A DNA stretch of 28,737 nucleotides from the IMG/VR virus record IMGVR_UViG_3300009514_001427; one strand, 5' to 3'. The DNA is from a virus. The number at the start of each line of letters is the position of its first letter. The stretch's first letter is position 1. Both the position numbers and the translations under genes were made by a program. Shown in pieces: positions 10,197 to 22,005 of this stretch. The notes below the pieces were generated by a model, which was not told where the DNA came from, did no database searches, and saw nothing but the letters and a program-made list of their open reading frames with translations.

Positions 10197-10478
10197 ATGG
10201 CAAAGGAAAAGATAGTTTGCAAGGAATGTGGCAGCGAGGAAGTACGCCGAGATGCTTTCGCTTCATGGGATGTGGACAAACAAGAGTGGGTTCTTCACGC
10301 CATATACGATCACTTCGTCTGCGACAGTGACGAGTGTAACGGAGAGCCTTGTGACATAAAGACAATCGAGGGCAAGGCGGGAGATTCGTCGAGCAACGAT
10401 CCGTTTGTGGCGAGCGGTAGCTCCGAGTCTCCCGCCTTGGAGCAGTTAGCTCCATTGGTCGGAGTGGGAAAGAATTAA
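10197..10478 (+). CDS. zinc-ribbon protein (CKECG…CDSDEC), 93 aa
   Basis: Leaderless ATG. Confidence 0.6.
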   Translation: MAKEKIVCKECGSEEVRRDAFASWDVDKQEWVLHAIYDHFVCDSDECNGEPCDIKTIEGKAGDSSSNDPFVASGSSESPALEQLAPLVGVGKN

Positions 10479-10493
10479 ACGCGACAAATTGGC

Positions 10494-10522
10494 TTGACTT
10501 TTACTCGCGTGTAAAGTATATT
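10494..10522 (+). promoter_or_regulatory. sigma70 promoter P9 (TTGACT-17-TATATT), drives a non-coding transcript
   Basis: TTGACT 10494-10499, TATATT 10517-10522. Confidence 0.5.
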
Positions 10523-10639
10523 CTCAGTGTGGGACGCTTCTCTTTCTTCACTGTGACATGATCGCACGCATGTCACAGCCCGTAAGGCGCGAGAGCGGGT
10601 CAACGGAACTGTTTGGGAGGTTCTTCATCCTGCACTGAT

Positions 10640-10651
10640 CTGAAATAAGCC
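10640..10651 (+). repeat. CTGAAATAAGCC motif, copy 1 of 8
   Basis: Exact 12-mer. Confidence 0.6.
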
Positions 10652-10720
10652 CAGACTACCTGCGAAAGTGGGCTCCAGTCTCTCCGATCCAAGAGATGCC
10701 ATAATCCGCGTCGGATCAAA

Positions 10721-10758
10721 ATGCCGTCCGTACGGGCAAATACGGGCGGCATTTTTTC
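10721..10758 (+). terminator. rho-independent terminator
   Basis: atgccg-t-ccgta / tacgg-g-cggcat gives a 12-bp stem with one U-G pair and loop cgggcaaa, followed by T6. Confidence 0.75.
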
Positions 10759-10770
10759 TTGGCCTTTTAC

Positions 10771-10798
10771 TTGACATTTCGTTGGGCCGTGGTATACT
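10771..10798 (+). promoter_or_regulatory. sigma70 promoter P10 (class II)
   Basis: TTGACA 10771-10776, TATACT 10793-10798. Confidence 0.7.
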
Positions 10799-10836
10799 CT
10801 AGACAGTTGGAGGAAACTCGAACCAACAGGAGACAA

Positions 10837-11853
10837 ATGATGGTAGCAGCAGTCAGTACACGACATAATGCCTTGGACAGCTTTGGGTCAACTGTCCGCA
10901 ACAAGAAAGACCCGTATGAAGCCATGAGGAAGGCTAAGGGGCTGTTTGGACTCAAGAAGATGTCCCTTGCTGAATTCTCTGGTACGCCTGCCAACCCCGA
11001 CTTACACGTCGTGGTCCGTACCGATACGGGTGAGGCTATCGGTCAAGTCGGCAACAACTACGAGGTTTTCCCGAACGAGTCATTCTTCGGACCAACAGCA
11101 GAAGCGCTGGTTGAAGCGGGAGCCGAGATCACTAAGTTCCAAATGCTGGATCGTGGGACGCGGTCTTTCATGCGTCTTGCCTGGCCAGACGATGCCAACC
11201 TGCGCATCGGCAAGCCCAAAGTCGGCGACATTGTGGGTCGTCGCGCAACACTCTCCACATCACATGACGGCAAGTACGCAGGCAAGTTCACGCTCATGAT
11301 GCTTCGCCTTGCCTGTGAGAATGGGATGACCGTCCCAGTCGGCAGCTTCGACATGAATATGTTTCATACCGTGGGCGGCAAGCAGCAGCTTGTTGAGTTG
11401 AGCAACATGATCCCCACCGTTGAGACATACGTCCGTCAGTTTCAGGTTGCCGCAGACATGATGGCGGAAGTCCCTGTGAAGGCTGGCAGTGACTTGGCGA
11501 TGAAAATCATCGGCAAGGTTGCTGACCCCAAGGGTGGAGCCAAGGATACTTCGGGTGGAACCCCGAATCTCGCCAAGTCTCGCGTCATGCGCATTGCTGA
11601 GCTTTTCGAGGGAGAGCAACCGCAGGCAGACAATGTGGCGATCAAGGATACTGGCTGGGGTCTTTATAATGCTTGCGTGGACTTTTTCACGCATGACAAG
11701 GGGACTCGTGGACAGAACGAATCGGAGCGGTTGGAGCAGCGTTTTAAGAGCTTGCTTCCGGGTGGACCTGCCCAGCGAGAGATCGTACGGGCATGGGGCG
11801 TCGTGACAGATGGATTGGGGGTCAGTAACGCAATTGCCGCAGCAGTAAACTAA
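10837..11853 (+). CDS. hypothetical protein ~338 aa; resembles the DUF932/TIGR03299 phage/plasmid-related family (from memory; motif STSHDGKYAG)
   Basis: AGGAG at 10828-10832 with tandem ATGs at 10837 and 10840. The track ORF begins upstream inside the promoter. Confidence 0.7.
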   Translation: MMVAAVSTRHNALDSFGSTVRNKKDPYEAMRKAKGLFGLKKMSLAEFSGTPANPDLHVVVRTDTGEAIGQVGNNYEVFPNESFFGPTAEALVEAGAEITKFQMLDRGTRSFMRLAWPDDANLRIGKPKVGDIVGRRATLSTSHDGKYAGKFTLMMLRLACENGMTVPVGSFDMNMFHTVGGKQQLVELSNMIPTVETYVRQFQVAADMMAEVPVKAGSDLAMKIIGKVADPKGGAKDTSGGTPNLAKSRVMRIAELFEGEQPQADNVAIKDTGWGLYNACVDFFTHDKGTRGQNESERLEQRFKSLLPGGPAQREIVRAWGVVTDGLGVSNAIAAAVN

Positions 11854-11878
11854 AGCGGCGACAGCGTTACGACCAAGG

Positions 11879-11912
11879 GGACCGGCTCCGGAGGGGGAGT
11901 CGGTCCTTTCTT
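11879..11912 (+). terminator. rho-independent terminator
   Basis: 11-bp stem ggaccggctcc/ggagtcggtcc with one G-U pair and loop ggaggg, followed by TTTCTT. Confidence 0.6.
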
Positions 11913-11921
11913 GGTTCAGGA

Positions 11922-11933
11922 CTGAAATAACTC
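11922..11933 (+). repeat. CTGAAATAAcTC motif variant, copy 2
   Basis: 9/12 core CTGAAATAA. Sits directly after the terminator at 11879-11912. Confidence 0.4.
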
Positions 11934-11965
11934 GCGGATAATTGAATGCTGGCCAAAGATTCTGC

Positions 11966-11993
11966 TTGACATTTATTGCTCATGTGGTATACT
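11966..11993 (+). promoter_or_regulatory. sigma70 promoter P11, leaderless
   Basis: TTGACA 11966-11971, TATACT 11988-11993, ATG at 12000 (+7). Confidence 0.7.
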
Positions 11994-11999
11994 ATAGAC

Positions 12000-12155
12000 A
12001 TGAGAGAGCAAACCACCCCAATCTTATGGGAACGACTCAAGACCTTGCGAGAGAAACTTGCTCGCTTGGTCAGAGCAGGTAAACGTGGCAAGCTCAGAGA
12101 CTGGCGTGAATACAATCTCGTAGCCCGCGTCATTATGCGACGGAGAAAAGCCTAA
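12000..12155 (+). CDS. small basic protein, 51 aa (MREQTTPILWERLKTLREKLARLVRAGKRGKLRDWREYNLVARVIMRRRKA)
   Basis: Leaderless ATG at +7 from the -10. The stop TAA overlaps the next ATG (taATG). It falls below the track's length cutoff. Confidence 0.45.
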   Translation: MREQTTPILWERLKTLREKLARLVRAGKRGKLRDWREYNLVARVIMRRRKA

Positions 12156-12460
12156 TGCCTAAACCAGAATTCAAAACCGAGTGGGAAAGCGATACATACG
12201 ACAAGGCACACGAAGCCATGTCTGCACTGCTCAACCTTGCCAACGGCATGGGCAGTAGCAAGGCAGTGGTAGCAGGTATGCTCGATGGATTCCTCAGCGA
12301 GCACCGTACACTGCAACAGGCAGGAGTACGCAACTTCGTGGGTATGCTTAAGGAGTGGACGAAGTTTAGCGAGCCTGCTATGACAGACCTGCGTAACCAG
12401 GATGCGTGGAAATTCGCAAAGCAGGTTGTCGAGCTTGACCCAATGTTTGCGAATGTTTAG
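12155..12460 (+). CDS. hypothetical protein, 101 aa
   Basis: GGAG at 12142-12145; taATG coupling. Confidence 0.6.
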   Translation: MPKPEFKTEWESDTYDKAHEAMSALLNLANGMGSSKAVVAGMLDGFLSEHRTLQQAGVRNFVGMLKEWTKFSEPAMTDLRNQDAWKFAKQVVELDPMFANV

Positions 12461-12471
12461 TCCATTTCTTC

Positions 12472-12499
12472 TTGACATTTCTTGTGGCCGTGGTATACT
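12472..12499 (+). promoter_or_regulatory. sigma70 promoter P12 (class II, with upstream TTTCTTC), leaderless
   Basis: TTGACA 12472-12477, TATACT 12494-12499, ATG 12506. Confidence 0.7.
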
Positions 12500-12505
12500 A
12501 TAGAC

Positions 12506-12823
12506 ATGAACGACAACAAGACAATCGACGAAGCGGCTCAGGCAATCGACGATCACCAGTCGATGGTCGAATCCCGCACCGATAGGGAAATCTTCGCGGA
12601 GATGAATGAGATGGACCAGCCCAAAGTAACGGACTTCACCACAACCGTACCAGCAGAAAAGAGCGGCTTCGATGTCCGCGTGAAACTGGATAGCCGATGG
12701 GTCACAGTCGGCAATCATCCTACCCGCGAAGATGCAGAGCGAGCGGAATTGGCTCTTAGCCAAGTGATGATCGAATACAGGACCAAGCGCAACGCATGGG
12801 AGAACAGCCATGCCAACAGTTAG
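12506..12823 (+). CDS. hypothetical protein, 105 aa
   Basis: Leaderless ATG; in frame with track ORF 12482..12823. Confidence 0.6.
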   Translation: MNDNKTIDEAAQAIDDHQSMVESRTDREIFAEMNEMDQPKVTDFTTTVPAEKSGFDVRVKLDSRWVTVGNHPTREDAERAELALSQVMIEYRTKRNAWENSHANS

Positions 12824-12829
12824 AGCGAC

Positions 12830-12857
12830 TTGACATTTCCGCTCTATGAGGTATACT
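12830..12857 (+). promoter_or_regulatory. sigma70 promoter P13, leaderless
   Basis: TTGACA 12830-12835, TATACT 12852-12857, ATG 12864 (+7). Confidence 0.7.
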
Positions 12858-12863
12858 AAAACT

Positions 12864-13088
12864 ATGGGACTAACAGTTGACAAGAAAGACTCGCCTCAAG
12901 CTGAGCGAATCATTAACGCGGGCAAAGAAATAACCAAACTGGTCCGCGAAACGGTCTATGCTGACCGACATTCAAGAAACTGTGCTACCGGGGCGCATCC
13001 CAATCGCTGGACGGATGCAGCGAGGAAACGGGATGACGCCGTGAAGTTTTTGAAGGAGCGACTGCAACAAATAGCAGAAGAAATCTGA
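12864..13088 (+). CDS. hypothetical protein, 74 aa
   Basis: Leaderless ATG in frame in ORF 12846..13088. Confidence 0.55.
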   Translation: MGLTVDKKDSPQAERIINAGKEITKLVRETVYADRHSRNCATGAHPNRWTDAARKRDDAVKFLKERLQQIAEEI

Positions 13089-13097
13089 ACAAACTGC

Positions 13098-13125
13098 TTG
13101 ACATTTATCCCTGATGTGGTATACT
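13098..13125 (+). promoter_or_regulatory. sigma70 promoter P14
   Basis: TTGACA 13098-13103, TATACT 13120-13125. Followed by the conserved leader ggtaacgacggcaagttacttgAAGGGAGCTAAAAATG. Confidence 0.7.
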
Positions 13126-13163
13126 TTGGGTAACGACGGCAAGTTACTTGAAGGGAGCTAAAA

Positions 13164-13625
13164 ATGCCACAAATCAGACGAGATGAAATGGTCGTGGGAA
13201 TGCAGGCGGTTAAAACCGTCCAGTCCGCAACTTGGAGACGCCGTGGCGATAAGGTCGTCAACCGTTGCGTCAACTGTGAGTCTGAGACAGCCACCCATGA
13301 GGGCGAGCGATTCTGCAACCACTGCAACTGCTTTGTCCCAACGTACAAGAGTACGGAAGCTGCCGAGGGCGATCTTGTCACGATGCAGTTTATTCCCCGT
13401 ATCAATCCCAACGGGACCAAAAACTGGACCCCCGCTGGCGGTGAATGCTTCGGCGTAGCAACCAGAGCAGAGGCAGACGCGATCAAGCGTAAGCATGGTC
13501 TGGTTGGCGTCCTCAAGATGTCCGAGACTGCCACTGGCGACATGCGGGCTTTGCCACGAGTTATCCCGGTGGATGATGTGGTGACATGGAAAGCCGAGGG
13601 AGTAGAATACGAAGTAGTCGATTGA
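13164..13625 (+). CDS. zinc-ribbon protein (CVNCESETATHEGERFCNHCNC), 153 aa; paralog of the gene at 22006..22506
   Basis: AAGGGAG at 13151-13157. The two paralogs share MQAVKTVQS.TWRRR.DK.V.RCV.CE.ETATH.G.RFCN.C, MQFIPKINP.GTKNWTPAGG and a …EGVEY.VVD C-terminus. Confidence 0.7.
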   Translation: MPQIRRDEMVVGMQAVKTVQSATWRRRGDKVVNRCVNCESETATHEGERFCNHCNCFVPTYKSTEAAEGDLVTMQFIPRINPNGTKNWTPAGGECFGVATRAEADAIKRKHGLVGVLKMSETATGDMRALPRVIPVDDVVTWKAEGVEYEVVD

Positions 13626-13716
13626 AACTATGGGAGCGTAGGAGAAGCAGGGTAGGCGTACGCAACGCCCTGTGGCGACCGATATGTGATATACGGCACT
13701 GTTGGCAGGACGCTGC

Positions 13717-13728
13717 CAGAAATAAGCA
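13717..13728 (+). repeat. CAGAAATAAGCA motif variant, copy 3
   Basis: 10/12 match. Confidence 0.45.
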
Positions 13729-13931
13729 GTGCAATGTGGGGTTGGCACCCACCGCTCCCAGCCAGAACGCGTCAGAGTTGGCACGGTTCTAGAACGTGTA
13801 ACCGAAGGCATTCGGTGATGGGCATTGCGTAGGATAGGTGGGAGGCGCTGATACCTGCATTCCGGTGTAGATGAGCCATCCTTGAAATACCACCCTTTGC
13901 CCGGCAACTCTTATTTTTGTTCATTTTCTTC

Positions 13932-13959
13932 TTGACATTTCTCCTGGCCGTGGTATACT
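13932..13959 (+). promoter_or_regulatory. sigma70 promoter P15 (class II: gttcattttcttcTTGACATTTCTCCTGGCCGTGGTATACT)
   Basis: TTGACA 13932-13937, TATACT 13954-13959. Confidence 0.7.
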
Positions 13960-13977
13960 ATAGGCAGAAGGGAGACA

Positions 13978-14280
13978 ATGATGAGCCACAAAGTTACATG
14001 CGAAGATTGCGGACAAGAGGTTAGCCACGCCAGTTGTCGCACTGTTGGAGCGACGAAGAAATGGCTCTGTGGCGTCTGTGATGAATCATGCGAGCCTTGT
14101 CGTGGCTGCGACTCACACGATGTGGTATACTCCGATCATGGCGTCGATCTTTGCCAGTCCTGCAAGGATAACGCAACGCCAGAGCAAAAAGCGGACTTGT
14201 ACGAGCGTGACTATATGGACGCGCTGGAAAGTGGGCATCCAATGGCAGACCGCATGCCCATGCCTTCTAACTGGAGATAA
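13978..14280 (+). CDS. Cys-rich, probably zinc-binding, protein, 100 aa (many CxxC)
   Basis: AGGGAG at 13968-13973 with tandem ATGs at 13978 and 13981. Confidence 0.6.
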   Translation: MMSHKVTCEDCGQEVSHASCRTVGATKKWLCGVCDESCEPCRGCDSHDVVYSDHGVDLCQSCKDNATPEQKADLYERDYMDALESGHPMADRMPMPSNWR

Positions 14281-14284
14281 CAAA

Positions 14285-14464
14285 ATGCTAGAACGAGTTG
14301 CCAACCTGTTAAGCGGAGTTACACTAGAAGAAGACCCTGAAGGTCTGCTATTGCTCAACCTTGTTGTTCAGATGCAAGAGCATCCAGAAATCGACTGGAC
14401 CATCGACAAAATCAACACCGTCGTTACTGAGTTTCAAGGGTCGCTTGACGAGATGGAGGAGTAA
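14285..14464 (+). CDS. hypothetical protein, 59 aa
   Basis: GGAG at 14273-14276 precedes ATG 14285, in frame in ORF 14045..14464. Confidence 0.45.
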   Translation: MLERVANLLSGVTLEEDPEGLLLLNLVVQMQEHPEIDWTIDKINTVVTEFQGSLDEMEE

Positions 14465-14670
14465 TGTTTCCTGTCAACGGCAAGTGGTTTCTTGAGTCTA
14501 CCCATGAACCCAACAGGGAGATATTCCTAGTCAACCAAGGCGCTACCTGGCGTACTTTCACCCAGTATGGAGATGCTGAAGCGTTCGCTAAAAGGATGGA
14601 TCAGACGCTCAATGACGTCACTATCTTGACAGTGAAACCCGTCCTGCATTTACCGCAAAAAAGCACTTGA
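14464..14670 (+). CDS. hypothetical protein, 68 aa
   Basis: taATG coupling with GGAGG upstream. Confidence 0.5.
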   Translation: MFPVNGKWFLESTHEPNREIFLVNQGATWRTFTQYGDAEAFAKRMDQTLNDVTILTVKPVLHLPQKST

Positions 14671-14694
14671 CATTTCTCCTGGCCGTGGTATACT
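14667..14694 (+). promoter_or_regulatory. sigma70 promoter P16 (class II)
   Basis: TTGACA 14667-14672, TATACT 14689-14694. Confidence 0.7.
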
Positions 14695-14715
14695 GTAGGT
14701 AGAAAGGACGAAACG

Positions 14716-14880
14716 ATGATCAAAGACGTATCCACTCACAATGTCCTCATTCTCTATGTTTGCCCTGACTGTGGCAACGACGCGGACCAGTGGCTCTGCG
14801 ACATTGTCCACAATGGGACGCTGACTTGCGAATGTGGCGTGGACATGGAACTTAAACCTGATTGCCAAGTAAGGGAGTAG
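14716..14880 (+). CDS. small zinc-ribbon protein, 54 aa (CPDCG…CECG)
   Basis: AAAGGA at 14703-14708 precedes ATG 14716, with stop TAG at 14878-14880. It falls below the track's length cutoff. Confidence 0.45.
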   Translation: MIKDVSTHNVLILYVCPDCGNDADQWLCDIVHNGTLTCECGVDMELKPDCQVRE

Positions 14881-14882
14881 TT

Positions 14883-15149
14883 ATGCCTTGCATGTGCGGA
14901 GATACTTACTGTTACTCATGTGGTCCAGCCCAAGGAAACCACCGCTGCGAAATCTGCGGGAAATGGGATGAGGACGGCGGCTGCACGACACCTGACGAAT
15001 GTACTGCCAAGGCTAACGAAATGTATGCCGAGATGCAGGCAGAGCAACAGCGCTTCGATGAGGAAGCAGATGAACATGGGGAATTAGTCGGCAAAGCCCA
15101 CCCGGCTCAAACTCAAGAGATGTGGGAAGAAATAGGCAGAGGTTCATAA
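14883..15149 (+). CDS. Cys-rich protein, 88 aa (CMCGDTYCYSCG…CEICG)
   Basis: AAGGGAG precedes ATG 14883, in frame in ORF 14862..15149. Confidence 0.55.
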   Translation: MPCMCGDTYCYSCGPAQGNHRCEICGKWDEDGGCTTPDECTAKANEMYAEMQAEQQRFDEEADEHGELVGKAHPAQTQEMWEEIGRGS

Positions 15150-15156
15150 AAAGGAC

Positions 15157-15185
15157 TTGACATTTCCCCCGACGTATGGTATAAT
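15157..15185 (+). promoter_or_regulatory. sigma70 promoter P17, perfect consensus TTGACA-17-TGgTATAAT, leaderless
   Basis: TTGACA 15157-15162, TATAAT 15180-15185, ATG 15192 (+7). Confidence 0.7.
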
Positions 15186-15191
15186 AGAACC

Positions 15192-15347
15192 ATGAAGCAG
15201 GATAAGAGACAACTCATCGGTCGCGACCCAACCAAGGGATTGCTGGCCTTCAAAACAGGTTCGCAGCTAAACCGCAAGGATCGACTGCGCAACCGCAACT
15301 CCAAGGTCGCTCGCGCCACCCTTCGACGCCAGCTTAATGGCGACTGA
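15192..15347 (+). CDS. small basic protein, 51 aa (MKQDKRQLIGRDPTKGLLAFKTGSQLNRKDRLRNRNSKVARATLRRQLNGD)
   Basis: Leaderless ATG. It falls below the track's length cutoff. Confidence 0.4.
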   Translation: MKQDKRQLIGRDPTKGLLAFKTGSQLNRKDRLRNRNSKVARATLRRQLNGD

Positions 15348-15367
15348 TTTTTTCGGACCTCCCAGAT

Positions 15368-15379
15368 CTGAAATAAGCC
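15368..15379 (+). repeat. CTGAAATAAGCC motif, copy 4
   Basis: Exact 12-mer, 20 nt after a gene stop. Confidence 0.6.
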
Positions 15380-15515
15380 TCCACTTTTAGCTAAGGTCAT
15401 TCTTGCGCCTGTCCGACAGACGGGCATGAGAATATACAACGATCCATTCGAGCAATTGCTGGCCGACGTAGTTAAGGAATGCGCGGAAGAATTGAACAAA
15501 ATCCAGCCGCAAGAC

Positions 15516-15543
15516 TTGACATTTATTCCCAATGTGGTATACT
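15516..15543 (+). promoter_or_regulatory. sigma70 promoter P18
   Basis: TTGACA 15516-15521, TATACT 15538-15543. Leader is …gacggataaggatactcacAAGGGAGCAAACAATG. Confidence 0.7.
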
Positions 15544-15582
15544 TAAATCAGACGGATAAGGATACTCACAAGGGAGCAAACA

Positions 15583-16194
15583 ATGCTGGCAAAAACAATC
15601 ACTTTCGCAGACGGACGCAAACTGGAGATTCATAGGGACGAACATCCAGAATCCCCGCGTGAATGGGACAACAACGGTATCATGGTCTGTTTCGCACGTC
15701 GCTACAATCTCGGCGACAAGCATGACCACAAGACGCCAGACGACTTCCGTGAATGGCTGAAAGAGCAAGACGTTATCGCTCAACTGCCGTTGTACTTGTA
15801 CGATCATTCCGGTATCACCATGAGCACCGGACCTTTCTCTTGTCCGTGGGATTCAGGTCAAGTCGGTTGGATCGTCGCTACCCGCGAATCGCTCGAATCT
15901 GGTGGACACGACGTAGACAAGCTGGACGTAGCCAAGGTCGAAACGTGGCTCCGTGGCGAAGTAGAGACTTACGATCAATTCCTTCGCGGGGACATTTACG
16001 GATTCATCCTTCGCAAGCCAATTGATCCACCTTGCGAGACTTGTGGACGGGAAGACGATGAAGGCGAAGAAGAATCATCGTGTTGGGGATTCTACGGCGA
16101 CAATCCGCTTGAGAATGGAATGGCGGATAGCTTCACCGACGAACAGCGTGCAGAATTGAAAGCTGGTACTTGCAAAGAAGTTTGCGCATATTAG
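15583..16194 (+). CDS. hypothetical protein, 203 aa
   Basis: AAGGGAG at 15570-15576. The stop TAG abuts the next -35. Confidence 0.7.
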   Translation: MLAKTITFADGRKLEIHRDEHPESPREWDNNGIMVCFARRYNLGDKHDHKTPDDFREWLKEQDVIAQLPLYLYDHSGITMSTGPFSCPWDSGQVGWIVATRESLESGGHDVDKLDVAKVETWLRGEVETYDQFLRGDIYGFILRKPIDPPCETCGREDDEGEEESSCWGFYGDNPLENGMADSFTDEQRAELKAGTCKEVCAY

Positions 16195-16197
16195 CCC

Positions 16198-16225
16198 TTG
16201 ACATTTTGGGCGTATGTGGTATACT
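16198..16225 (+). promoter_or_regulatory. sigma70 promoter P19, drives a non-coding transcript
   Basis: TTGACA 16198-16203, TATACT 16220-16225. Confidence 0.65.
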
Positions 16226-16412
16226 TCAAGAGAATGAGAGACGGCAATAGGGACAACAAGGTACAGGAGATGAAACCATGAAGTCGTAAACGAACCCCGT
16301 CAAGCAACTGATAATGAGATGAATGAGACAAAACCCAAAGGGCAACCCAGACGCGACCCAATAGTAACGTGATAAAGATCGCACGACTGGATAGCCCTTT
16401 CGGGGCACCGCA

Positions 16413-16442
16413 GCGGGGGCTGAAATAAGCCCCCGCTTTTCT
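16413..16442 (+). terminator. rho-independent terminator (gcgggggc-TGAAATAA-gcccccgc-TTTTCTT)
   Basis: Perfect 8-bp GC stem, 8-nt loop and a T-run. Confidence 0.8.
16420..16431 (+). repeat. CTGAAATAAGCC motif, copy 5 (forms the loop of a terminator)
   Basis: Exact 12-mer. Confidence 0.6.
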
Positions 16443-16464
16443 TGTTCATACACTGATTTTGAAC

Positions 16465-16492
16465 TTGACAATTCCGAAGTATGTGGTATACT
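16465..16492 (+). promoter_or_regulatory. sigma70 promoter P20, leaderless
   Basis: TTGACA 16465-16470, TATACT 16487-16492, ATG 16499. Confidence 0.7.
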
Positions 16493-16498
16493 AAAGGT

Positions 16499-16975
16499 AT
16501 GACAACGACAACAATCAAACCAGATGGACTCGCGTTGGCTGGACTCGGACTCGACAAAGGCTTGCTACTCCGCGTAGCCCGCTGTTTGCTCGCAGACATT
16601 TACTGGGATGATGACCAGGAAACCCAGTATCGAGCAGACTGCAAGGTCCGTAGCGAGCCGTGGATTAGGGAGCTTATGAAGCGCCCAGAAACTCCACAAG
16701 TCCCAGACGAGACAGACGCTCTCATCCGTATGGCTCATATCTGCGGACGAATTGAACAGGCATGGGGCGAGTCATTCTACAGCGTGGCGCGACGTATCTG
16801 TAAGCATGATGAAGTCAAAGAGGAAGTACAAGAGGACTTGGTTTACTACGCTCTCATGGCGGCAATGGGACATGGCGTAGGTCCACAAGATGTAGACGGC
16901 TTCCCAGAGGAGCTTGACGCCAGCCCGATCAATATCGAAAACCCAATGCTCTACCAACTGGCGTTGCTGGAATAG
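16499..16975 (+). CDS. hypothetical protein, 158 aa
   Basis: Leaderless ATG in frame in ORF 16481..16975. Confidence 0.65.
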   Translation: MTTTTIKPDGLALAGLGLDKGLLLRVARCLLADIYWDDDQETQYRADCKVRSEPWIRELMKRPETPQVPDETDALIRMAHICGRIEQAWGESFYSVARRICKHDEVKEEVQEDLVYYALMAAMGHGVGPQDVDGFPEELDASPINIENPMLYQLALLE

Positions 16976-16989
16976 TTCAGATTTTTCCC

Positions 16990-17017
16990 TTGACATTTAT
17001 TGCTCATGTGGTATACT
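16990..17017 (+). promoter_or_regulatory. sigma70 promoter P21
   Basis: TTGACA 16990-16995, TATACT 17012-17017. Confidence 0.7.
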
Positions 17018-17038
17018 TAGAGCAGAAAGGGAGAGACC

Positions 17039-17296
17039 ATGACGCTACTCGGACAAACAGAACGGACGGAACGGACAACGAGCTTTACGCCAGAGCAAAA
17101 GGCAATCGTCGATGAGTTTATTCCCCAGTTGGCGGATAAAATCAGCCAGATAATCAATGAGGTTGCTCCCGGTCTCAGAGCGATGGACGACCGCCCACGA
17201 CAGACATACAGCCCAGAGCAGCCCGATGTATATTTCCCGTACGTTGCTCAGGCGTTGCTCGAAGATTTGATCGCTGAATTACAGGAGCGAGTCTAA
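17039..17296 (+). CDS. hypothetical protein, 85 aa
   Basis: AAGGGAGAG RBS. Confidence 0.6.
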   Translation: MTLLGQTERTERTTSFTPEQKAIVDEFIPQLADKISQIINEVAPGLRAMDDRPRQTYSPEQPDVYFPYVAQALLEDLIAELQERV

Positions 17297-17529
17297 TGCA
17301 ATCAGTCGAGACATTCAGGACCATCAGCAACGACACACTGGATACGATGGTTGCCAACTTCACCGAGACAATCGGCAACCTACAAGCGATGGAAACCAGC
17401 GACATGGACGAGCTTATTCGAGCTTGCGAAGTGATCGGACGCCGAGTACGCGCAGGACTCATCCCAGAGGGACGCGGACTGCTACTGTTTGCGAAGATCA
17501 TCGTTGACGACGCCAATCGGAGTGACTAA
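17296..17529 (+). CDS. hypothetical protein, 77 aa
   Basis: taATG coupling; AGGAG RBS. Confidence 0.55.
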   Translation: MQSVETFRTISNDTLDTMVANFTETIGNLQAMETSDMDELIRACEVIGRRVRAGLIPEGRGLLLFAKIIVDDANRSD

Positions 17530-17733
17530 CGTGACACTGATACCATTTCTGACATTTTTTGCACTGCCGAAACTTGAGCTAAGTGGGGCACTGCCTACTT
17601 CCCGATTGAGGCGACGGGAATGCCCAAATGCTCGCCGATGGAGTGTAGACCTGAATACCCAATGGCGGACAGCAGTAAGGGGTGCATTGGGTTAGCGAAA
17701 GAAATAACAGGCAGCCCACTATATATTGAGGCA

Positions 17734-17775
17734 GCCGCTCCGATTCACCCTAAAGTGAGTGTGGATCGGAGCGGC
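17734..17775 (+). other. long hairpin (11-bp stem gccgctccgat/atcggagcggc, 20-nt loop with inner tcac/gtga) in a 365-nt untranslated spacer
   Basis: The inverted repeat is seen directly. A weak T-tract (ttgcgtgttt) follows, so it may be a leaky terminator or an RNA element. Confidence 0.4.
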
Positions 17776-17819
17776 TTGCGTGTTTGCCCAGCTTAACACA
17801 AAAAATGTCAGAATTGTCC

Positions 17820-17847
17820 TTGACAAACGCACCTCATGTGGTATACT
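17820..17847 (+). promoter_or_regulatory. sigma70 promoter P22
   Basis: TTGACA 17820-17825, TATACT 17842-17847. Leader is tagacggtagcgaacaaccttacgccaCAAGGAGCAAACAATG. Confidence 0.7.
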
Positions 17848-17894
17848 TCTTATGTAGACGGTAGCGAACAACCTTACGCCACAAGGAGCAAACA

Positions 17895-18182
17895 ATGGCA
17901 ACCACGCGAAACGGAAAGAAACGCCACAACTGGGTCACGAACTCGACAATCGTTGACGACGAAACAAACAAGACCGCCGCTCGCTTCATCGACTCATGCG
18001 TCCACTTGACGCCAGCCCGTGAAGCAGAGCTTGACAACTTGATCGGCGTCGGGACCGACAAGACCGATCATGAACCAGACCCCGAAATTGTCGGGGCGAT
18101 GGAGGATGAGGACTGGGGCGATAGCTGGATGGATCAGGAGCCAACCGCAGCGGACCTGCGAGCTATTGAGACGGGCAAATAG
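17895..18182 (+). CDS. hypothetical protein, 95 aa
   Basis: CAAGGAGC RBS. Confidence 0.6.
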   Translation: MATTRNGKKRHNWVTNSTIVDDETNKTAARFIDSCVHLTPAREAELDNLIGVGTDKTDHEPDPEIVGAMEDEDWGDSWMDQEPTAADLRAIETGK

Positions 18183-18230
18183 ACCCGCTCAAAACCAAAC
18201 TAGGAGCGGCAGCCGCAAGCGGATTAACTC

Positions 18231-18258
18231 GCCCCCGAGAAATCGGGGGCTTTCTTTT
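18231..18258 (+). terminator. rho-independent terminator with a GNRA tetraloop (gcccccga-GAAA-tcgggggc-TTTCTTTT)
   Basis: Perfect 8-bp stem plus T-run. Confidence 0.8.
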
Positions 18259-18302
18259 GGCCTGTGAGAAAAGAAATAACCTCACGAACTCAAGTTAAAC
18301 CC

Positions 18303-18330
18303 TTGACATTTGCTGGGAAAGAGGTATACT
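18303..18330 (+). promoter_or_regulatory. sigma70 promoter P23, leaderless
   Basis: TTGACA 18303-18308, TATACT 18325-18330, ATG 18338. Confidence 0.7.
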
Positions 18331-18337
18331 ATAAACG

Positions 18338-18769
18338 ATGAAACTGAATGACCGACAACAGGAAAAGGCAATCGGACTGCGCCAGCTTATCAAGTCACCA
18401 AGACCATGTGACGAAAAGGGCTGGTCCGCTCACATCGACTTCACCAGGGCTTTGGCGAAGATGCTCGATGGCATCGACGTAATACAAAGCCCCGTGGCGA
18501 TGAAAGAGACGTTCGACAGGGCTTGGAGAGCTTATGCCCATTACTGGGCAAACGAAAACGACAGGGTTCTGTTTGAAGCACTGGGCAGCGATGAGATACT
18601 GGTCGCAAAGGTCAAGGAGCATGAAAACGGACGGCGAATTGTCAACCGTATTCTTGCCCGAGTGAAAGAACAGTATGGGGGAATTAACCCCGAAGTAAAC
18701 GCCAGCTCCGTCGAAATCACAGACATTCTCACCGAAGAGATGGACGGCGAATGGTCCGAAGAGGTATAA
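18338..18769 (+). CDS. hypothetical protein, 143 aa
   Basis: Leaderless ATG. Confidence 0.65.
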   Translation: MKLNDRQQEKAIGLRQLIKSPRPCDEKGWSAHIDFTRALAKMLDGIDVIQSPVAMKETFDRAWRAYAHYWANENDRVLFEALGSDEILVAKVKEHENGRRIVNRILARVKEQYGGINPEVNASSVEITDILTEEMDGEWSEEV

Positions 18770-18815
18770 TGAGAGGCTTACCTTGATCCCTTGTGGGGTT
18801 GAGTAACTACCGTCA

Positions 18816-18853
18816 GACATAAGGCGCTGTCCGAAAGGGCAACGCCTTATGTC
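18816..18853 (+). terminator. terminator-like hairpin (11-bp stem gacataaggcg/cgccttatgtc, 16-nt loop) with a weak T tract
   Basis: Perfect inverted repeat, then gTTcc. Confidence 0.4.
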
Positions 18854-18877
18854 GTTCCAAATTAGTTCATTTTTCAT

Positions 18878-18906
18878 TTGACATTTATTGCTGGCCGTGG
18901 TATACT
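18878..18906 (+). promoter_or_regulatory. sigma70 promoter P24 (17-nt spacer)
   Basis: TTGACA 18878-18883, TATACT 18901-18906. Leader is tagaacaacggtaagttactctaagccaCAAAGGAGCAAACAATG. Confidence 0.7.
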
Positions 18907-18948
18907 TAGAACAACGGTAAGTTACTCTAAGCCACAAAGGAGCAAACA

Positions 18949-19407
18949 ATGTCAAAGATCAGCTATGTTGGAACTCGCGTCACTCGTAACGCCAAATACA
19001 CTCCAGCCGCCAAGAATGGAATGCTCGACGCCGCTGAACGTGAATTGCGACGATTCACAAAGCCACAGCGTATCAATGAGAATTGGTGGAGCCGACAACT
19101 CGGGTTCCGTGAGGACTACGGGAAACTAACCAACGGGGAAACTCCGTGGGCAACGCTCCGAGTTATGATGACTCGCAACGCCGACGATGGACGCGGCAAA
19201 GGTACGAGATTCGTCCGATTCGAGGCGGGATTCGTCGCAAGATCGAAATTCGATCAAGACCCGGCATGGTATCGACGCGAATACGGCAAGCCCGTCACCA
19301 GCAAGAGAAAACCAGCGCTCAAGAAACAAGGCGTACTCACAGTCTGTACCACAACCTGTCAATGTTGCGGCAGAAAAAATGACCACGTTTGGTACGAAGC
19401 CGCTTGA
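18949..19407 (+). CDS. hypothetical protein, 152 aa (C-terminal CTTTCQCCGRKNDH)
   Basis: AAAGGAGC RBS. The stop TGA lies inside the next -35. Confidence 0.65.
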   Translation: MSKISYVGTRVTRNAKYTPAAKNGMLDAAERELRRFTKPQRINENWWSRQLGFREDYGKLTNGETPWATLRVMMTRNADDGRGKGTRFVRFEAGFVARSKFDQDPAWYRREYGKPVTSKRKPALKKQGVLTVCTTTCQCCGRKNDHVWYEAA

Positions 19408-19431
19408 CTTTTCTCGTGGCCGTGGTATACT
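19404..19431 (+). promoter_or_regulatory. sigma70 promoter P25 (TTGACT, class II)
   Basis: TTGACT 19404-19409, TATACT 19426-19431. Confidence 0.65.
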
Positions 19432-19472
19432 CTAGACAGTGAAGGACAACGAACTCAAACGGAGCTAAGACA

Positions 19473-19661
19473 ATGGCAAAGATGACCAAAAAGAAAATCG
19501 ACGCGGCAGTGGAAGCAGCGTACCAACGCCACTTTGACCGCGTACCCGTCAATATGATGGACCTGCCCAAAATCATGAACATCGGCAGAAACGCCCTTGC
19601 CAACGGTGAGGACTTGGACGCTGCAATGGCAGCAGCAGTCCCCCAGTTTCGGAAGGACTAA
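19473..19661 (+). CDS. hypothetical protein, 62 aa
   Basis: GGAG at 19461-19464. Confidence 0.5.
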   Translation: MAKMTKKKIDAAVEAAYQRHFDRVPVNMMDLPKIMNIGRNALANGEDLDAAMAAAVPQFRKD

Positions 19662-19662
19662 C

Positions 19663-19887
19663 ATGCCAACGCAACAGCGCAAAGACGAATTGTGGGGCAA
19701 GGCGTATGGTGGACCTTGCCCCGAAGATGGACCCGGTAGCATCGAGGACTTGGAAGCCGCAGAAATAATCTACGACCGCGTCACCGCTGGCAACTGCCAA
19801 AACTGCGGAAAGAACGAAGACTGTACTTGCGTCTTTGTCGATCCAAACAACCCGGGCAAAACTGTTGTCGGTTTCCAAAACGGCTAA
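19663..19887 (+). CDS. small Cys-containing protein, 74 aa (CQNCGKNEDCTC)
   Basis: GAAGGA precedes ATG 19663, in frame in ORF 19597..19887. Confidence 0.55.
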   Translation: MPTQQRKDELWGKAYGGPCPEDGPGSIEDLEAAEIIYDRVTAGNCQNCGKNEDCTCVFVDPNNPGKTVVGFQNG

Positions 19888-19906
19888 AGAAAAGTTCATT
19901 TTCTAC

Positions 19907-19934
19907 TTGACAATTCTTGTGGCCGTGGTATACT
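19907..19934 (+). promoter_or_regulatory. sigma70 promoter P26 (class II, upstream AAAGAAAAGTTCATTTTCTAC)
   Basis: TTGACA 19907-19912, TATACT 19929-19934. Confidence 0.7.
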
Positions 19935-19976
19935 ATAGACAGTTGAACAACGCCACGAACACAGGGAGATAAACCG

Positions 19977-20258
19977 ATGAGGACTTACGATAACGGTAGC
20001 GGCTTTACGGTGTCATTCAGCGAGTCTGACGCTGACGAATTTAATGCGTCCTGGCCTTGCAGTACCGTAAACGGACCCGGTTGGTTTGCTTACGATAATA
20101 ACGGCGACCTGACCGATTGTGGAGGCGAAGCCGATCACGGTGACGGGGCGGACTGGCTTGCATTTTCGCAGGACTGCCAAAAGTACGGCGAGCAACGTAT
20201 CGGAGCGCTGAGAAAACGTCACGAGCGAGCCGAAAAGAAAAGTTCATTTTCTTCTTGA
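19977..20258 (+). CDS. hypothetical protein, 93 aa
   Basis: CAGGGAGA RBS. The C-terminus is translated from the promoter UP-region, and the stop TGA is the -35 (cTTGAca). Confidence 0.55.
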   Translation: MRTYDNGSGFTVSFSESDADEFNASWPCSTVNGPGWFAYDNNGDLTDCGGEADHGDGADWLAFSQDCQKYGEQRIGALRKRHERAEKKSSFSS

Positions 20259-20283
20259 CAACCTCTGGAGTATGGGGTATACT
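20255..20283 (+). promoter_or_regulatory. sigma70 promoter P27 (class II)
   Basis: TTGACA 20255-20260, TATACT 20278-20283. Confidence 0.65.
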
Positions 20284-20326
20284 ATAGACAGTTGAGAGTG
20301 AAACACACTTTTCAGGAGCTACTACG

Positions 20327-20551
20327 ATGCCATGTGAAGATGCCCCTTGCTGCGGTTGCTGCACCGTCCCGACCATGCAGGACCAGTACGACGCCGAGGA
20401 AGCCTATTGGGAAGCCGAGGAAGCGGGATTGCTCCCCGGCGAGGATATGGACGGAGACTTTGACTCCGCTATGGCGTCAGCCGGTCACGGCATGGACGAG
20501 GACTACGGCTTTGCAGAGGATATGCACTGCGAAGGATACGACGAATACTAA
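20327..20551 (+). CDS. small acidic Cys-rich protein, 74 aa (CEDAPCCGCC)
   Basis: AGGAG at 20313-20317. Confidence 0.55.
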   Translation: MPCEDAPCCGCCTVPTMQDQYDAEEAYWEAEEAGLLPGEDMDGDFDSAMASAGHGMDEDYGFAEDMHCEGYDEY

Positions 20552-20559
20552 GGAGAGAA

Positions 20560-20577
20560 GGGCGGCGAAAGCCGTCC
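20560..20577 (+). other. small hairpin with a GNRA loop (gggcggc-GAAA-gccgtcc)
   Basis: 7-bp stem with one G-U pair and no T-run. Possibly an RNA stability or processing element. Confidence 0.3.
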
Positions 20578-20593
20578 GCTCCCCGCACTGGAA

Positions 20594-20605
20594 CTGAAAT
20601 AAGCC
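20594..20605 (+). repeat. CTGAAATAAGCC motif, copy 6
   Basis: Exact 12-mer, flanked by a direct repeat of cccgcact. Confidence 0.6.
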
Positions 20606-20628
20606 CGCACTAATTGTTCATTTTCTTC

Positions 20629-20657
20629 TTGACAACTCCCGTGGCATGTGGTATACT
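20629..20657 (+). promoter_or_regulatory. sigma70 promoter P28 (class II), leaderless
   Basis: TTGACA 20629-20634, TATACT 20652-20657, ATG 20664. Confidence 0.7.
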
Positions 20658-20663
20658 TTAGAC

Positions 20664-20909
20664 ATGTTTGAATGGCTCAACAATCTAAAGCCCGGCGATC
20701 AAGTGACTGTCCGTGACCGAGACCACAACAGGCTCGGACAATTCCCAGAAAGACAATGGGCAGAAGTGGTCAGCGAAATCACAGCAGACCATATCAAAAC
20801 TCTGCCCGTTGGATATGTACCGGGATCGAAAACTATCGAGCCATTCAGACTGTTTGACCGACGATTCGGCAGCAGCAATACAGAGGAGCTAAGACCATGT
20901 TCGCAATAG
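20664..20909 (+). CDS. hypothetical protein, 81 aa
   Basis: Leaderless ATG in frame in ORF 20646..20909. Confidence 0.55.
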   Translation: MFEWLNNLKPGDQVTVRDRDHNRLGQFPERQWAEVVSEITADHIKTLPVGYVPGSKTIEPFRLFDRRFGSSNTEELRPCSQ

Positions 20910-21184
20910 TCCTATCAGATGTCAGAGCCAACAGAAACGAACTCGTAGGCTGGAAAGCTACAGTCTATCCCGTCGATGGTTACGACCGTTGCGACGGATG
21001 CCAAGACCACAGCAAGCCCGCTCTAGGCTGTCAATACGTCGAGTCACAAATCCACAAAGACCCCAAAGACGCAATCGACGAAGTTGCAAGGATTGCCGCG
21101 CGACGAGCAGAAAGACGCGAAGGCTCCGAAGTATTCCACGTCCCCCATGAAGAAGTTCAGAAATTTGCTGAACAAATCGCTTGA
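20897..21184 (+). CDS. hypothetical protein, 95 aa
   Basis: GAGGAG RBS. The stop lies inside the next -35. Confidence 0.55.
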   Translation: MFAIVLSDVRANRNELVGWKATVYPVDGYDRCDGCQDHSKPALGCQYVESQIHKDPKDAIDEVARIAARRAERREGSEVFHVPHEEVQKFAEQIA

Positions 21185-21208
21185 CATTTATTCCCCATGT
21201 GGTATACT
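21181..21208 (+). promoter_or_regulatory. sigma70 promoter P29
   Basis: TTGACA 21181-21186, TATACT 21203-21208. Leader is gtaagtgacggcaagagaaaaccaCAAAGGAGCTAAGCCGATG. Confidence 0.7.
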
Positions 21209-21248
21209 GTAAGTGACGGCAAGAGAAAACCACAAAGGAGCTAAGCCG

Positions 21249-21686
21249 ATGGCAAAATGTAACAAACTCTGGACCAAAACCGCGTTTGCAAAAGTCCCTC
21301 CAATCGGAGCGACCGAGAAAATCGCGGCAGAAAATAAGGTCGCACTAGTCAAAATCTTCTGCGCCCTGTCCGATCATCGTCACTATGTACTAGAGTACGA
21401 CCCAGAAACAACCGAAGCGTTCGTCTTGACCACAAACGGCGACGTCTGCGAGCTTGGATATATCCTACTGTCCGAGCTTCAAGAGATGAACGACAACTGG
21501 AATCAACGAAACCCAGAAACAGGACGCCGACGCTTCCTATTCCCACCGTGGGAACGAGAGCTTCACGGTACGCCCTCAGCAGGCTACAACATCGGCAAGG
21601 TACAAGAAGCCCACGCGCGACAATGGAATCAACCCGTATGGAACGCCGCAATCGCAGACGGCAGAGCGGAGGTTATCCCAACATGA
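21249..21686 (+). CDS. hypothetical protein, 145 aa
   Basis: GGAG at 21237-21240, in frame in ORF 21213..21686. Confidence 0.65.
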   Translation: MAKCNKLWTKTAFAKVPPIGATEKIAAENKVALVKIFCALSDHRHYVLEYDPETTEAFVLTTNGDVCELGYILLSELQEMNDNWNQRNPETGRRRFLFPPWERELHGTPSAGYNIGKVQEAHARQWNQPVWNAAIADGRAEVIPT

Positions 21687-21907
21687 CAGCCCAAGAAAAA
21701 GCAGACCAAGCAGCAACCGACAGAGATAAGCAGGCGAGAGAGTACGCCACAAGCTACATTCAAGGCAACCGAAAGAGCGTCTGTCTGGAGATACTCAACG
21801 GACCAAACCCGGCAATCATGGCGTCACTCGTCACAAGGAAACTATGCCGTCAGCATTTTGGAACGGCAGACGAATTCATCCGGATCTTGGCGGCTCAAGT
21901 GGACTGA
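21683..21907 (+). CDS. hypothetical protein, 74 aa
   Basis: ATGA overlap with GAGCGGAGG upstream. In frame in ORF 21548..21907. Confidence 0.5.
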   Translation: MTAQEKADQAATDRDKQAREYATSYIQGNRKSVCLEILNGPNPAIMASLVTRKLCRQHFGTADEFIRILAAQVD

Positions 21908-21915
21908 AATAAGCC
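21904..21915 (+). repeat. CTGAAATAAGCC motif, copy 7 (overlaps the stop codon of the gene ending at 21907)
   Basis: Exact 12-mer. Confidence 0.6.
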
Positions 21916-21937
21916 GACAAAATTGTTCCTTTTTCGT

Positions 21938-21965
21938 TTGACTATTCCGTCTCATGTAGTATACT
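21938..21965 (+). promoter_or_regulatory. sigma70 promoter P30 (TTGACT-16-TATACT)
   Basis: TTGACT 21938-21943, TATACT 21960-21965. Leader is ctatgtagacgacggttactcaaacAAAGGGAGCTAGACAATG. Confidence 0.6.
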
Positions 21966-22005
21966 CTATGTAGACGACGGTTACTCAAACAAAGGGAGCT
22001 AGACA

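Follow-up and report, generated by a model that had tools for sequence, protein, structure and literature searches.

A promoter-to-terminator unit without a protein-coding frame, found at positions 16198-16442 (plus strand) of the early region of an uncultured phage, is tentatively best read as a small early non-coding RNA gene that occupies a hyperplastic cassette slot. The stretch analysed (hereafter the window) comprises 28,737 nucleotides (nt) of the IMG/VR record IMGVR_UViG_3300009514_001427, and the phage has a 153-kb contig. The small-RNA reading is favoured because the promoter (P19) and the terminator are of top quality, because strong plus-strand terminators are few (another strong hairpin ends a second candidate without an open reading frame (ORF), at 10.5 kb), and because ORF-less units persist in four other lineages, three of them with a conserved non-coding core. 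In this reading, host sigma-70 RNA polymerase would initiate at P19 and terminate at the strong intrinsic hairpin, and the predicted product is a discrete RNA of ~214 nt (roughly 16232 to 16445). Its 5' part would consist of a leader resembling those of the phage mRNAs, a Shine-Dalgarno sequence and a mini-ORF of 3 codons, and its 3' part of a long irregular hairpin, after which come the terminator hairpin and its U-tail. The RNA itself would be the product. A stable decoy or a protein- or ribosome-binding RNA, abundant early in infection, seems likelier than an antisense regulator of phage genes, since no target complementarity was recognized, the ribosome-loading site is kept, and a look-alike of the ribosomal L1 stalk occurs in the same phage.

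Promoter P19 has no mismatch to the family pattern TTGACA-N11-TGTGGTATACT, as stated in a preliminary description of this DNA, and it matches 11 of the 12 sigma-70 consensus positions, with a TG ahead of the -10 hexamer. A pattern scan of the window recorded 29 promoters of this family, 28 of them in plus orientation; chance alone would give 0.02. These are near-identical consensus sigma-70 promoters with an extended -10 (TTGACATTT...ATGTGGTATACT), distributed across the early region (1-24200). In approximately one third of the window genes the ATG lies exactly 6 nt past TATACT, and these genes probably give leaderless mRNAs; on the basis of this spacing, transcription of the unit is predicted to start near G16232 or A16233. 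The remaining genes have a common leader, GACGGCAAG...ACAAAGGGAGC or GACGGCAAG...AAGGGAGC, which may be able to form a 5' hairpin (GACGGCAAGTTACT...AAGGGAGC). The leader of the unit resembles this common leader.

The strong terminator reported earlier at the other end of the unit was recovered as the top terminator-like site across 9000-28737 (16412-16437). It has 10 pairs, 8 of them G-C, a GAAATA loop (GAAAUA in RNA) lying within CTGAAATAAG, and the tail TTTCTTGTTC. Among the plus-strand sites listed by the terminator scan, which missed the hairpin ending the 10.5-kb candidate, only those at 16412 and 18231 have at least 7 G-C pairs. The gap between promoter and terminator is ~212 nt; a promoter and a Rho-independent terminator of its own (both sequence predictions) bracketing 50-400 nt are what is looked for in a small RNA (sRNA) gene. 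The long irregular hairpin is present in both the minimum-free-energy and the centroid folds of the unit, and its 3' strand includes the 9-mer GATCGCACG (16377-16385). The GCCC-UUUCG-GGGC hairpin of the preliminary description is also present, competing for one strand of the long hairpin; it is not kept in the relatives, which have GCCCUAGAAGGAGA... at that place. All features are listed in Table 1.

Table 1. Features of the 16.2-kb unit in the window and contents of the corresponding slot in related contigs.
Feature	Coordinates	Strand	Details
Window, promoter P19	16198-16225	+	-35 TTGACA 16198-16203; extended -10 TGTGGTATACT 16215-16225
Window, mRNA-like 5' leader	16232-16269	+	begins GAGACGGCAAUAGGGACAACAAGG; ends in Shine-Dalgarno AGGAG 16265-16269
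Window, near-leaderless 15-codon ORF MRDGNRDNKVQEMKP	16234-16281	+	start 8 nt past -10 hexamer
Window, mini-ORF AUG AAG UCG UAA (Met-Lys-Ser-stop)	16278-16289	+	8 nt past Shine-Dalgarno
Window, long irregular hairpin	16340-16397	+	GGGC/GCCC 16340-16343:16394-16397; CCAG/CUGG 16347-16350:16387-16390
Window, GCCC-UUUCG-GGGC hairpin	16394-16406	+	competes for GCCC strand of long hairpin
Window, intrinsic terminator	16412-16447	+	10-bp stem 16412-16421:16428-16437; U-rich tail 16438-16447
Window, spacer and next family promoter	16448-16498	+	promoter 16465-16492; serves leaderless gene, ATG 16499
L258 slot	5704-5958		family promoter, ~225 nt without ORF, terminator loop CUGAAAUAG
L260 slot	5610-5900		family promoter, ~260 nt without ORF, terminator loop CUGAAAAAG
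L261	4407-4655		unit of same kind; two extra small genes before w16499 homologue
L286 slot	716-945		promoter, ~190 nt with only a 23-codon ORF behind Shine-Dalgarno, terminator; unrelated sequence
L264, L285 slot			unrelated ORFs of ~80 amino acids
L262 slot			nothing; 370-nt non-coding stretch one gene upstream

The slot is flanked by two conserved genes (w15583, 15583-16194, and w16499, 16499-16975), and contigs of relatives were found via homologues of the downstream protein w16499 (60-75% identity). The gene order DUF932 ... w15192 ... w15583 ... [unit] ... w16499 ... w17895 ... w18338 is conserved in L258 and L260; L261 has the same order, but no match to w15583. A promoter-to-terminator unit without a credible ORF occupies the slot in L258, L260 and L286, and in L261 one lies nearby, two small genes upstream, which upholds the earlier opinion that the unit is not a chance gap. 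The terminator of the unit and the promoter at 16465-16492 form a composite terminator/promoter junction, and the same layout is found in L258, L260 and L261. Since its contents differ between L258, L260, L261, L286, L264, L285 and L262, the slot is, judging from these contigs, hyperplastic and bounded by such junctions. In L258, L260 and L261 the leader position is taken by GGAUCAACAAAG...GGGAG, and a Shine-Dalgarno sequence stands 7-8 nt ahead of an ATG that opens a short ORF (8 codons, MTHRYVTC, in L258; 7, MRPNTRR, in L260; 9, MRYRNYGHC, in L261; the ORF of L286 has 23). The peptides are not conserved among the units. The non-coding stretch of L262 (4840-5250) is promoter-led, has an 11-codon ORF behind a Shine-Dalgarno sequence and contains a hairpin around CTGAAATAG.

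No conserved protein-coding frame was found in the unit, as is expected of an sRNA gene. The preliminary statement that it holds only peptides of up to 17 amino acids (aa) is correct for ATG starts, but a GTG start gives 19 aa on the same strand. Minus-strand ORFs of 56-99 aa cross the unit, and antisense ORFs of this kind span the whole window; these frames are open because the plus strand is purine-rich (positive AT skew), so that its complement is poor in stop codons. On the minus strand over the unit no promoter was seen except the mirror image of the plus-strand one. The 81-aa minus-strand translation has no relative among 5.8 billion proteins, and a 61-aa call in L260, likewise searched for further members, yielded nothing. 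When the unit was compared by blastx with every open frame in 21 related loci and in the remainder of the window, the best E was 0.27, so the intact homologous protein that would have pointed to a pseudogenised cassette was sought without success. Likewise, tblastn of the slot ORF of L264 against all units found nothing better than E 0.3, and the ~80-aa slot ORFs of L264 and L285 have no detectable kinship to the unit.

It is extremely improbable that the unit is the gene of a very small protein, be it the 15-aa ORF at 16234-16281, the 17-aa MNETKPKGQPRRDPIVT, the 19-aa GTG ORF or a minus-strand ORF. Plus-strand ORFs of 15-19 aa do exist, the minus strand is open across the unit, and leaderless translation is apparently common in the phage. 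However, the relatives conserve none of these ORFs, no Shine-Dalgarno sequence precedes the 17- and 19-aa ORFs, and the 15-aa ORF starts 8, not 6, nt past the -10 hexamer; the last is probably fortuitous, as L258, L260 and L261 do not have it. For the minus strand, the 81-aa product without relatives, the lack of an independent promoter and the openness expected opposite a purine-rich strand all speak against a gene.

Comparative evidence for the small-RNA reading comes from the relatives. The units of L258, L260 and L261 are clearly homologous: their local alignments score 30-79, where shuffles reach at most 25-31, and they share a core of ~95 nt with a mean column identity of 80%. The adjacent gene is near saturation at its four-fold degenerate sites, where identity is only 28-58%. 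Gaps in the core alignment are of 1, 2 and 4 nt and stop codons occur in every plus-strand frame; this suggests that the core is under selection on RNA or DNA and not on protein. With RNAalifold, the units of the relatives are predicted to fold into a long irregular hairpin (GGGC...CCAG.CGGCGG / CCG.CCGCUGG.GCCC) and, after it, the terminator; all three share the basal helices and the 58-59 nt span of the window hairpin. Their terminator stems are wholly different yet paired, with the loop kept as CUGAAAUAG or CUGAAAAAG. Most of the pairs changed on both sides are in the terminator stem, the only one to covary.

The blocks of the window copy stand in the same order as in the relatives: leader, Shine-Dalgarno and ATG, GAUAAUGAG, AAAGGGCA-CCAGACG, CUGGA-GCCCU, and a terminator with a CUGAAAUA loop. 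The window block AAAGGGCAACCCAGACG corresponds to AAUGGGCACGCCAGACG of the relatives and CUGGAUAGCCCU to CUGGAGCCCU, the latter located 58 nt from the hairpin start, compared with 59 in L261. In a collinear global alignment with the relatives the window unit reached a summed z of ~3, equalled by 1-3 of 400 shuffles. The window's copy, too, may be functional.

Several results weigh against the small-RNA reading as far as this copy is concerned. Its body appears far less conserved than the equivalent units of the three relatives: local alignment of the body with them is not significant, the 3' half alone reaches a z of ~2 (36 of 1000 shuffles), nhmmer started from the three relatives matches only the window terminator (E 0.79), and a covariance model of the core (R1) has no match at 16340-16400. 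The neutral-site distance from the window to L260 and L261 equals that between L260 and L261, so the window unit either diverged unusually fast or is a different allele sharing only the end modules, and fast divergence would be the outcome expected of relaxed constraint. The long hairpin shows no compensatory changes, although 85% of cells pair in the four-sequence alignment, and is therefore compatible with the data but unproven. Fold stability is ordinary: without the terminator the window body has an energy z of -1.26 against shuffles and the L261 body one of +0.36, and the z of -3.05 of the whole unit is due to inclusion of the terminator. The slot is also plastic, with unrelated ~80-aa genes in L264 and L285 and nothing in L262, and the whole comparison rests on four or five sequences. 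In Rfam 15, the unit (16150-16520, E up to 10) gave noise of 10-17 bits against thresholds of 48-100, and pairing potential with transcripts of the phage itself does not exceed chance, with matches of 10-11 nt only.

These observations lend weight to a somewhat unlikely but serious competitor, an emptied or decaying cassette whose coding body was lost by deletion or by recombination between repeated promoter/terminator modules. The remnant would be transcribed but functionless, its promoter and terminator persisting because they are homogenised with neighbouring modules or serve neighbouring genes, for example by ending the w15583 transcript. Its 5' end is indistinguishable from that of a leadered mRNA, with a well-spaced Shine-Dalgarno sequence and an ATG whose frame closes after 3 codons; the slot behaves as a hot spot whose contents are unrelated from one phage to another; the body of the window unit is not detectably conserved while three equally distant relatives conserve theirs; and its folding is of ordinary stability. 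The terminator at 16412 would be needed anyway, as none lies between w15583 and P19, and in T4-type phages composite terminator/promoter modules drive such indels (PMC4122927, PMC2839356). On the other hand, no frame of the unit is similar to a protein of the relatives or the window, and residual similarity to an intact relative protein, the mark of a pseudogenised cassette, was not seen. P19 is an undegraded, perfect consensus. Moreover, four further lineages with saturated synonymous sites have ORF-less units at the slot, and three of them keep the 80% core; neutral remnants would not stay conserved, and phage genomes usually delete junk.

As to the type of RNA, no curated family and no target was recognized. 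The Rfam search that had been suggested earlier covered the window, the unit and the relatives: it returned nothing for the unit, and the units of the relatives were likewise without a match. An antisense or seed-pairing regulator is not indicated, as the longest complementarity is 10-11 nt in the window and L260 (~6 complementary 10-mers are expected by chance in the window, by our estimate), none reaches 10 nt in L258 or L261, and the complementary targets are not orthologous between phages. Other candidates were considered and set aside. A CsrA sponge was dropped, GGA occurring 8-9 times in the relatives and only 3 times in the window (hand count). A ToxI-like antitoxin RNA would have tandem direct repeats of ~36 nt, then a terminator and a toxin gene within the same operon. 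Here only a 7-nt AATGAGA present three times was seen, by eye and with no repeat-finding tool run; the gene downstream is served by a promoter of its own and occurs in relatives without the unit, and the predicted fold of its product matched none in the PDB at E <= 0.001. No supporting feature was found for 6S-RNA-like, retron-like or riboswitch readings. The core motif GAACCGNCCGCTGGAGCCCT has 19 exact matches in reference bacterial genomes (L266-L284), mostly in one repeated coding sequence (...WQNRPLEPCYP..., mostly Alphaproteobacteria), with the rest scattered in G+C-rich genomes. The repeated sequence presumably encodes an IS256-type transposase, and the bacterial matches were judged to be a coincidence amplified by copy number.

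Several phage sRNAs have their own promoter and intrinsic terminator, among them lambda OOP, phi29 pRNA (made from an early promoter), T4 RNAs C and D, and prophage DicF. The unit is similar to them in being ~200 nt long and ORF-less; by prediction, the host polymerase transcribes it, and a G+C-rich hairpin with a U-tail defines its 3' end. It differs in having no curated-family match, antisense partner or seed, and in its mRNA-like leader, Shine-Dalgarno sequence and mini-ORF.

The presence of AGGAG, an 8-nt spacer and AUG AAG UCG UAA behind a consensus promoter is the arrangement of a lambda bar-type minigene, which would be a special case of the RNA reading. The bar minigenes consist of a Shine-Dalgarno sequence and a 2-codon ORF and cause peptidyl-tRNA drop-off (PMC2490762; EMBO J 1998, PMC1170711). 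Ribosomes would load on the unit's Shine-Dalgarno sequence and 3-codon ORF, which may be translated, and the abortive or very short translation would free peptidyl-tRNA, sequester ribosomes and Lys/Ser tRNAs, and aid the shut-off of host translation; the structured 3' domain and the terminator would merely stabilise the RNA. We consider this improbable. Common to the unit and bar are a strong promoter and a phage transcript in which a few-codon ORF stands behind a Shine-Dalgarno sequence; P19 is among the strongest consensus promoter types, in every unit a Shine-Dalgarno sequence is kept ahead of an ATG that opens a very short ORF (3, 8, 7, 9 and 23 codons), and minigenes of 3-8 codons inhibit translation by peptidyl-tRNA accumulation (PMC2490762), with bar as the precedent in phages. 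However, this effect, shown in Pth-deficient cells or extracts, drops with minigene length (PMC2490762), and the ORFs of the relatives, at 7-23 codons, exceed the most effective minigenes in length. Retention of the Shine-Dalgarno sequence and ATG may also simply reflect their place in the common leader module. Unlike bar, the unit has a predicted structured 3' domain, conserved in the relatives, and the minigene leaves the ~95-nt core unexplained.

In lambda, the region pR'-tR' consists of a promoter, ~200 nt (the 194-nt '6S' leader) and a terminator. It is a precedent for a further rival, more improbable still, in which the 16.2-kb unit is a cis-acting element, i.e. a leader or attenuator dosing read-through from P19 and the promoter at 15516 into the downstream gene, or a long 3' untranslated region (UTR) of w15583 with an internal promoter. 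A mini-ORF resembling a leader peptide, an alternative hairpin (GCCC pairs with either 16340-16343 or 16403-16406) and a terminator form a classical attenuator layout, and transcripts from 15516 must cross the unit. Against this, the alternative hairpin is not conserved, the downstream gene is leaderless with its own perfect promoter 28 nt past the terminator stem, and different genes follow the unit of L261. In sRNAs of the MicL/DapZ type, embedded in 3' UTRs, an internal promoter is combined with the terminator of the mRNA. The window is similar in that w15583 has no terminator of its own before P19, and its mRNA and the P19 transcript would therefore have one common 3' end. It differs in that P19 lies past the stop codon and not inside the coding sequence, and the L258 unit is apparently insulated by a terminator-like hairpin of the upstream gene, located ahead of the unit promoter (recognized by eye), which is also a point against the cis-acting element.

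The junctions that bound the slot resemble in design the PeSL composite terminator/early-promoter modules of T4-type phages (Arbiol et al. 2010, PMC2839356; Comeau et al. 2014, PMC4122927). In both cases a near-identical early promoter is repeated behind a stem-loop and delimits the small variable cassettes of a hyperplastic early region, whose content at a given junction varies between related phages; here this is seen in the 29 promoters and the terminator-promoter junctions at 16412-16492 and in L258, L260 and L261. No homology is claimed, as the lineage and the sequences are different, the stem-loop is found at some junctions only, and there is an extra invariant 13-mer, CTGAAATAAGCCC. Furthermore, PeSL are junctions and not an ORF-less cassette with a conserved body.

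This 13-mer (16420-16432), which forms the loop and descending arm of the terminator, is the only significant string that the 16.2-kb unit has in common with the 10.5-kb candidate. The latter (10494-10762, plus strand) has a weaker promoter-like site (TTGACT-17-TATATT, 10/12), a 10-bp palindrome around GATCGCACG, a 13-mer box mid-body and a 15-bp terminator at ~10716-10754. In L260 the gap upstream of the DUF932 gene measures 85 nt, so this candidate seems to be missing there. The preliminary description had considered the two units similar, possibly a pair of related sRNAs. The 9-mer GATCGCACG on which it relied is indeed present in both, but this link is at chance level, as the 2 copies in the window compare with at least 2 copies in 6 of 100 shuffles. 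The best local alignment of the units is the 13-mer alone; once this is removed, 33 of 500 shuffles reach the local score, and 53 of 500 reach the global score of the intact units. The idea of a related pair is therefore not supported, the sole significant common string being a motif found between genes throughout the lineage.

Within the window, CTGAAATAA is present in 7 copies, all on the plus strand, against 1.15 expected, and 5 of the 7 are intergenic CTGAAATAAGCC (10640, 15368, 16420, 20594 and 21904). In the relatives the 13-mer follows the gene strand and typically lies ~25 nt upstream of the next early -35, followed by TTGTTCATTTT. Copies are located at 4369, 5934 and 8634 in L258, at 3200, 4632 and 8511 in L261, at 634, 3572, 5169 and 5952 in L262, and also in L184 and L171; the form is CTGAAATAAGCC(C), with the variants CTGAAATAG or CTGAAAAAG in some relatives. 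At one orthologous junction the 13-mer is invariant in three phages while its upstream flank is scrambled, and it often provides the TGA stop of the preceding ORF. From this distribution, CTGAAATAAGCCC is best described as a strand-specific intergenic signal of the phage lineage and not as a mark of ORF-less units. As it recurs at gene junctions and forms a hairpin loop only in ORF-less units (no stem is possible elsewhere), the TGAAATAA loop would belong to the junction module and not to the 16.2-kb RNA. Candidate roles of the box are a second promoter class, an RNA processing or protein site, and a cassette boundary.

The terminator tops also recall the boxB hairpins of the lambda nut sites (GCCCUGAAAAAGGGC / GCCCUGAAGAAGGGC). 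In the relatives the top is a pentaloop closed by U-A, with CU-GAAAA-AG in L260, identical to the nutR boxB 9-mer, and CU-GAAAU-AG in L258 and L261. The differences are a 10-17-bp terminator stem with a U-tail, a 6-nt loop (GAAAUA) in the window, the occurrence of the 13-mer also where no hairpin can form, and the absence of an identified boxA or N-like protein.

The sole gathering-level Rfam match in the window is a large-subunit (LSU) rRNA fragment at 13816-13906 (plus strand). This fragment, 91 nt long, resembles the L1 stalk of bacterial 23S rRNA (model positions 2125-2216, H76-H78), scoring 51.4 bits (gathering threshold 50; E ~1e-12), with the conserved L1-binding sequences GUAGGAUAGGUGGGAGGC and GAGCCAUCCUUGAAAUACCACCC intact. 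It is situated inside a non-coding stretch of ~300 nt (13625-13930), 2.4 kb upstream of the unit, and may be a decoy or a regulator site for ribosomal protein L1. A limited literature search turned up no phage precedent, and no LSU match was obtained in L258, L260, L261 or L262, loci which appear to be without the region. Such a convincing look-alike in the same phage would make RNA mimicry plausible. In a speculative extension, to which we assign a low probability, the 16.2-kb unit would be one of several early 'translation-decoy' RNAs of a so far undescribed lineage of large phages: an abundant RNA whose minigene loads host ribosomes and whose conserved 3' domain binds a host or phage factor, and which together with the L1-stalk look-alike would reprogramme host translation; the lineage-wide CUGAAAUAAGCCC box would be a site for a phage RNA-binding or termination/antitermination factor.

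An identical copy of the w16499 protein is encoded on a JGI contig of 153 kb. Of twenty window proteins tested, almost none had a Pfam match, the exceptions being a DUF932 protein, an ArdC-like antirestriction protein and a protein with weak sub-threshold zinc-finger matches; all nine neighbour proteins tested were empty. The AlphaFold model of w16499 is confident (pLDDT 88.6), and it matched no PDB fold at E <= 0.001 (best E 2.6). In the isolated-phage collection there was no DNA match to the window and none to the w16499 protein, and w15583 had distant matches only (<60% identity), in diverse large phages. Searches of IMG/VR with the terminator sequence, promoter pattern, protein or core motif found no relatives, the flanking protein had none in reference bacterial genomes, and a metagenome promoter scan revealed distant relatives in project SDBT01, none of them spanning the w15583-w16499 slot. 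Contigs of the lineage range from 153 to 557 kb: L258 is Ga0452210_000013 (256,855 bp), and a contig of 557,248 bp encodes the same protein, P0003. Jumbo or mega-phages may belong to the lineage; alternatively, these long contigs may be mis-assemblies or integrated elements. Further non-coding stretches of the window are at 15347-15516, 21686-21938 and 23672-24157; the 485-nt gap past the ArdC-like gene shows a marginal match to covariance model R1 (23894-23975, E 0.03). A conserved block, ...CTCAAGTCAC...CCGACAA, is located downstream of w15192 homologues.

The analysis now separates three things, namely the 16.2-kb unit, the unrelated 10.5-kb candidate and the 13-nt intergenic signal of the whole lineage. 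This signal, like the L1-stalk look-alike, is probably of more interest than the unit itself. The small RNAs of virulent phages are poorly catalogued, and this unit comes from an uncultured lineage for which no relative was found in the isolated-phage collection or IMG/VR. If the RNA is functional, it would be a new early effector made by the host polymerase, with a core (in three relatives) that matches no curated family. If the unit is instead an emptied cassette, it would be a clear example of how repeated promoter/terminator modules churn the early region of a large phage.

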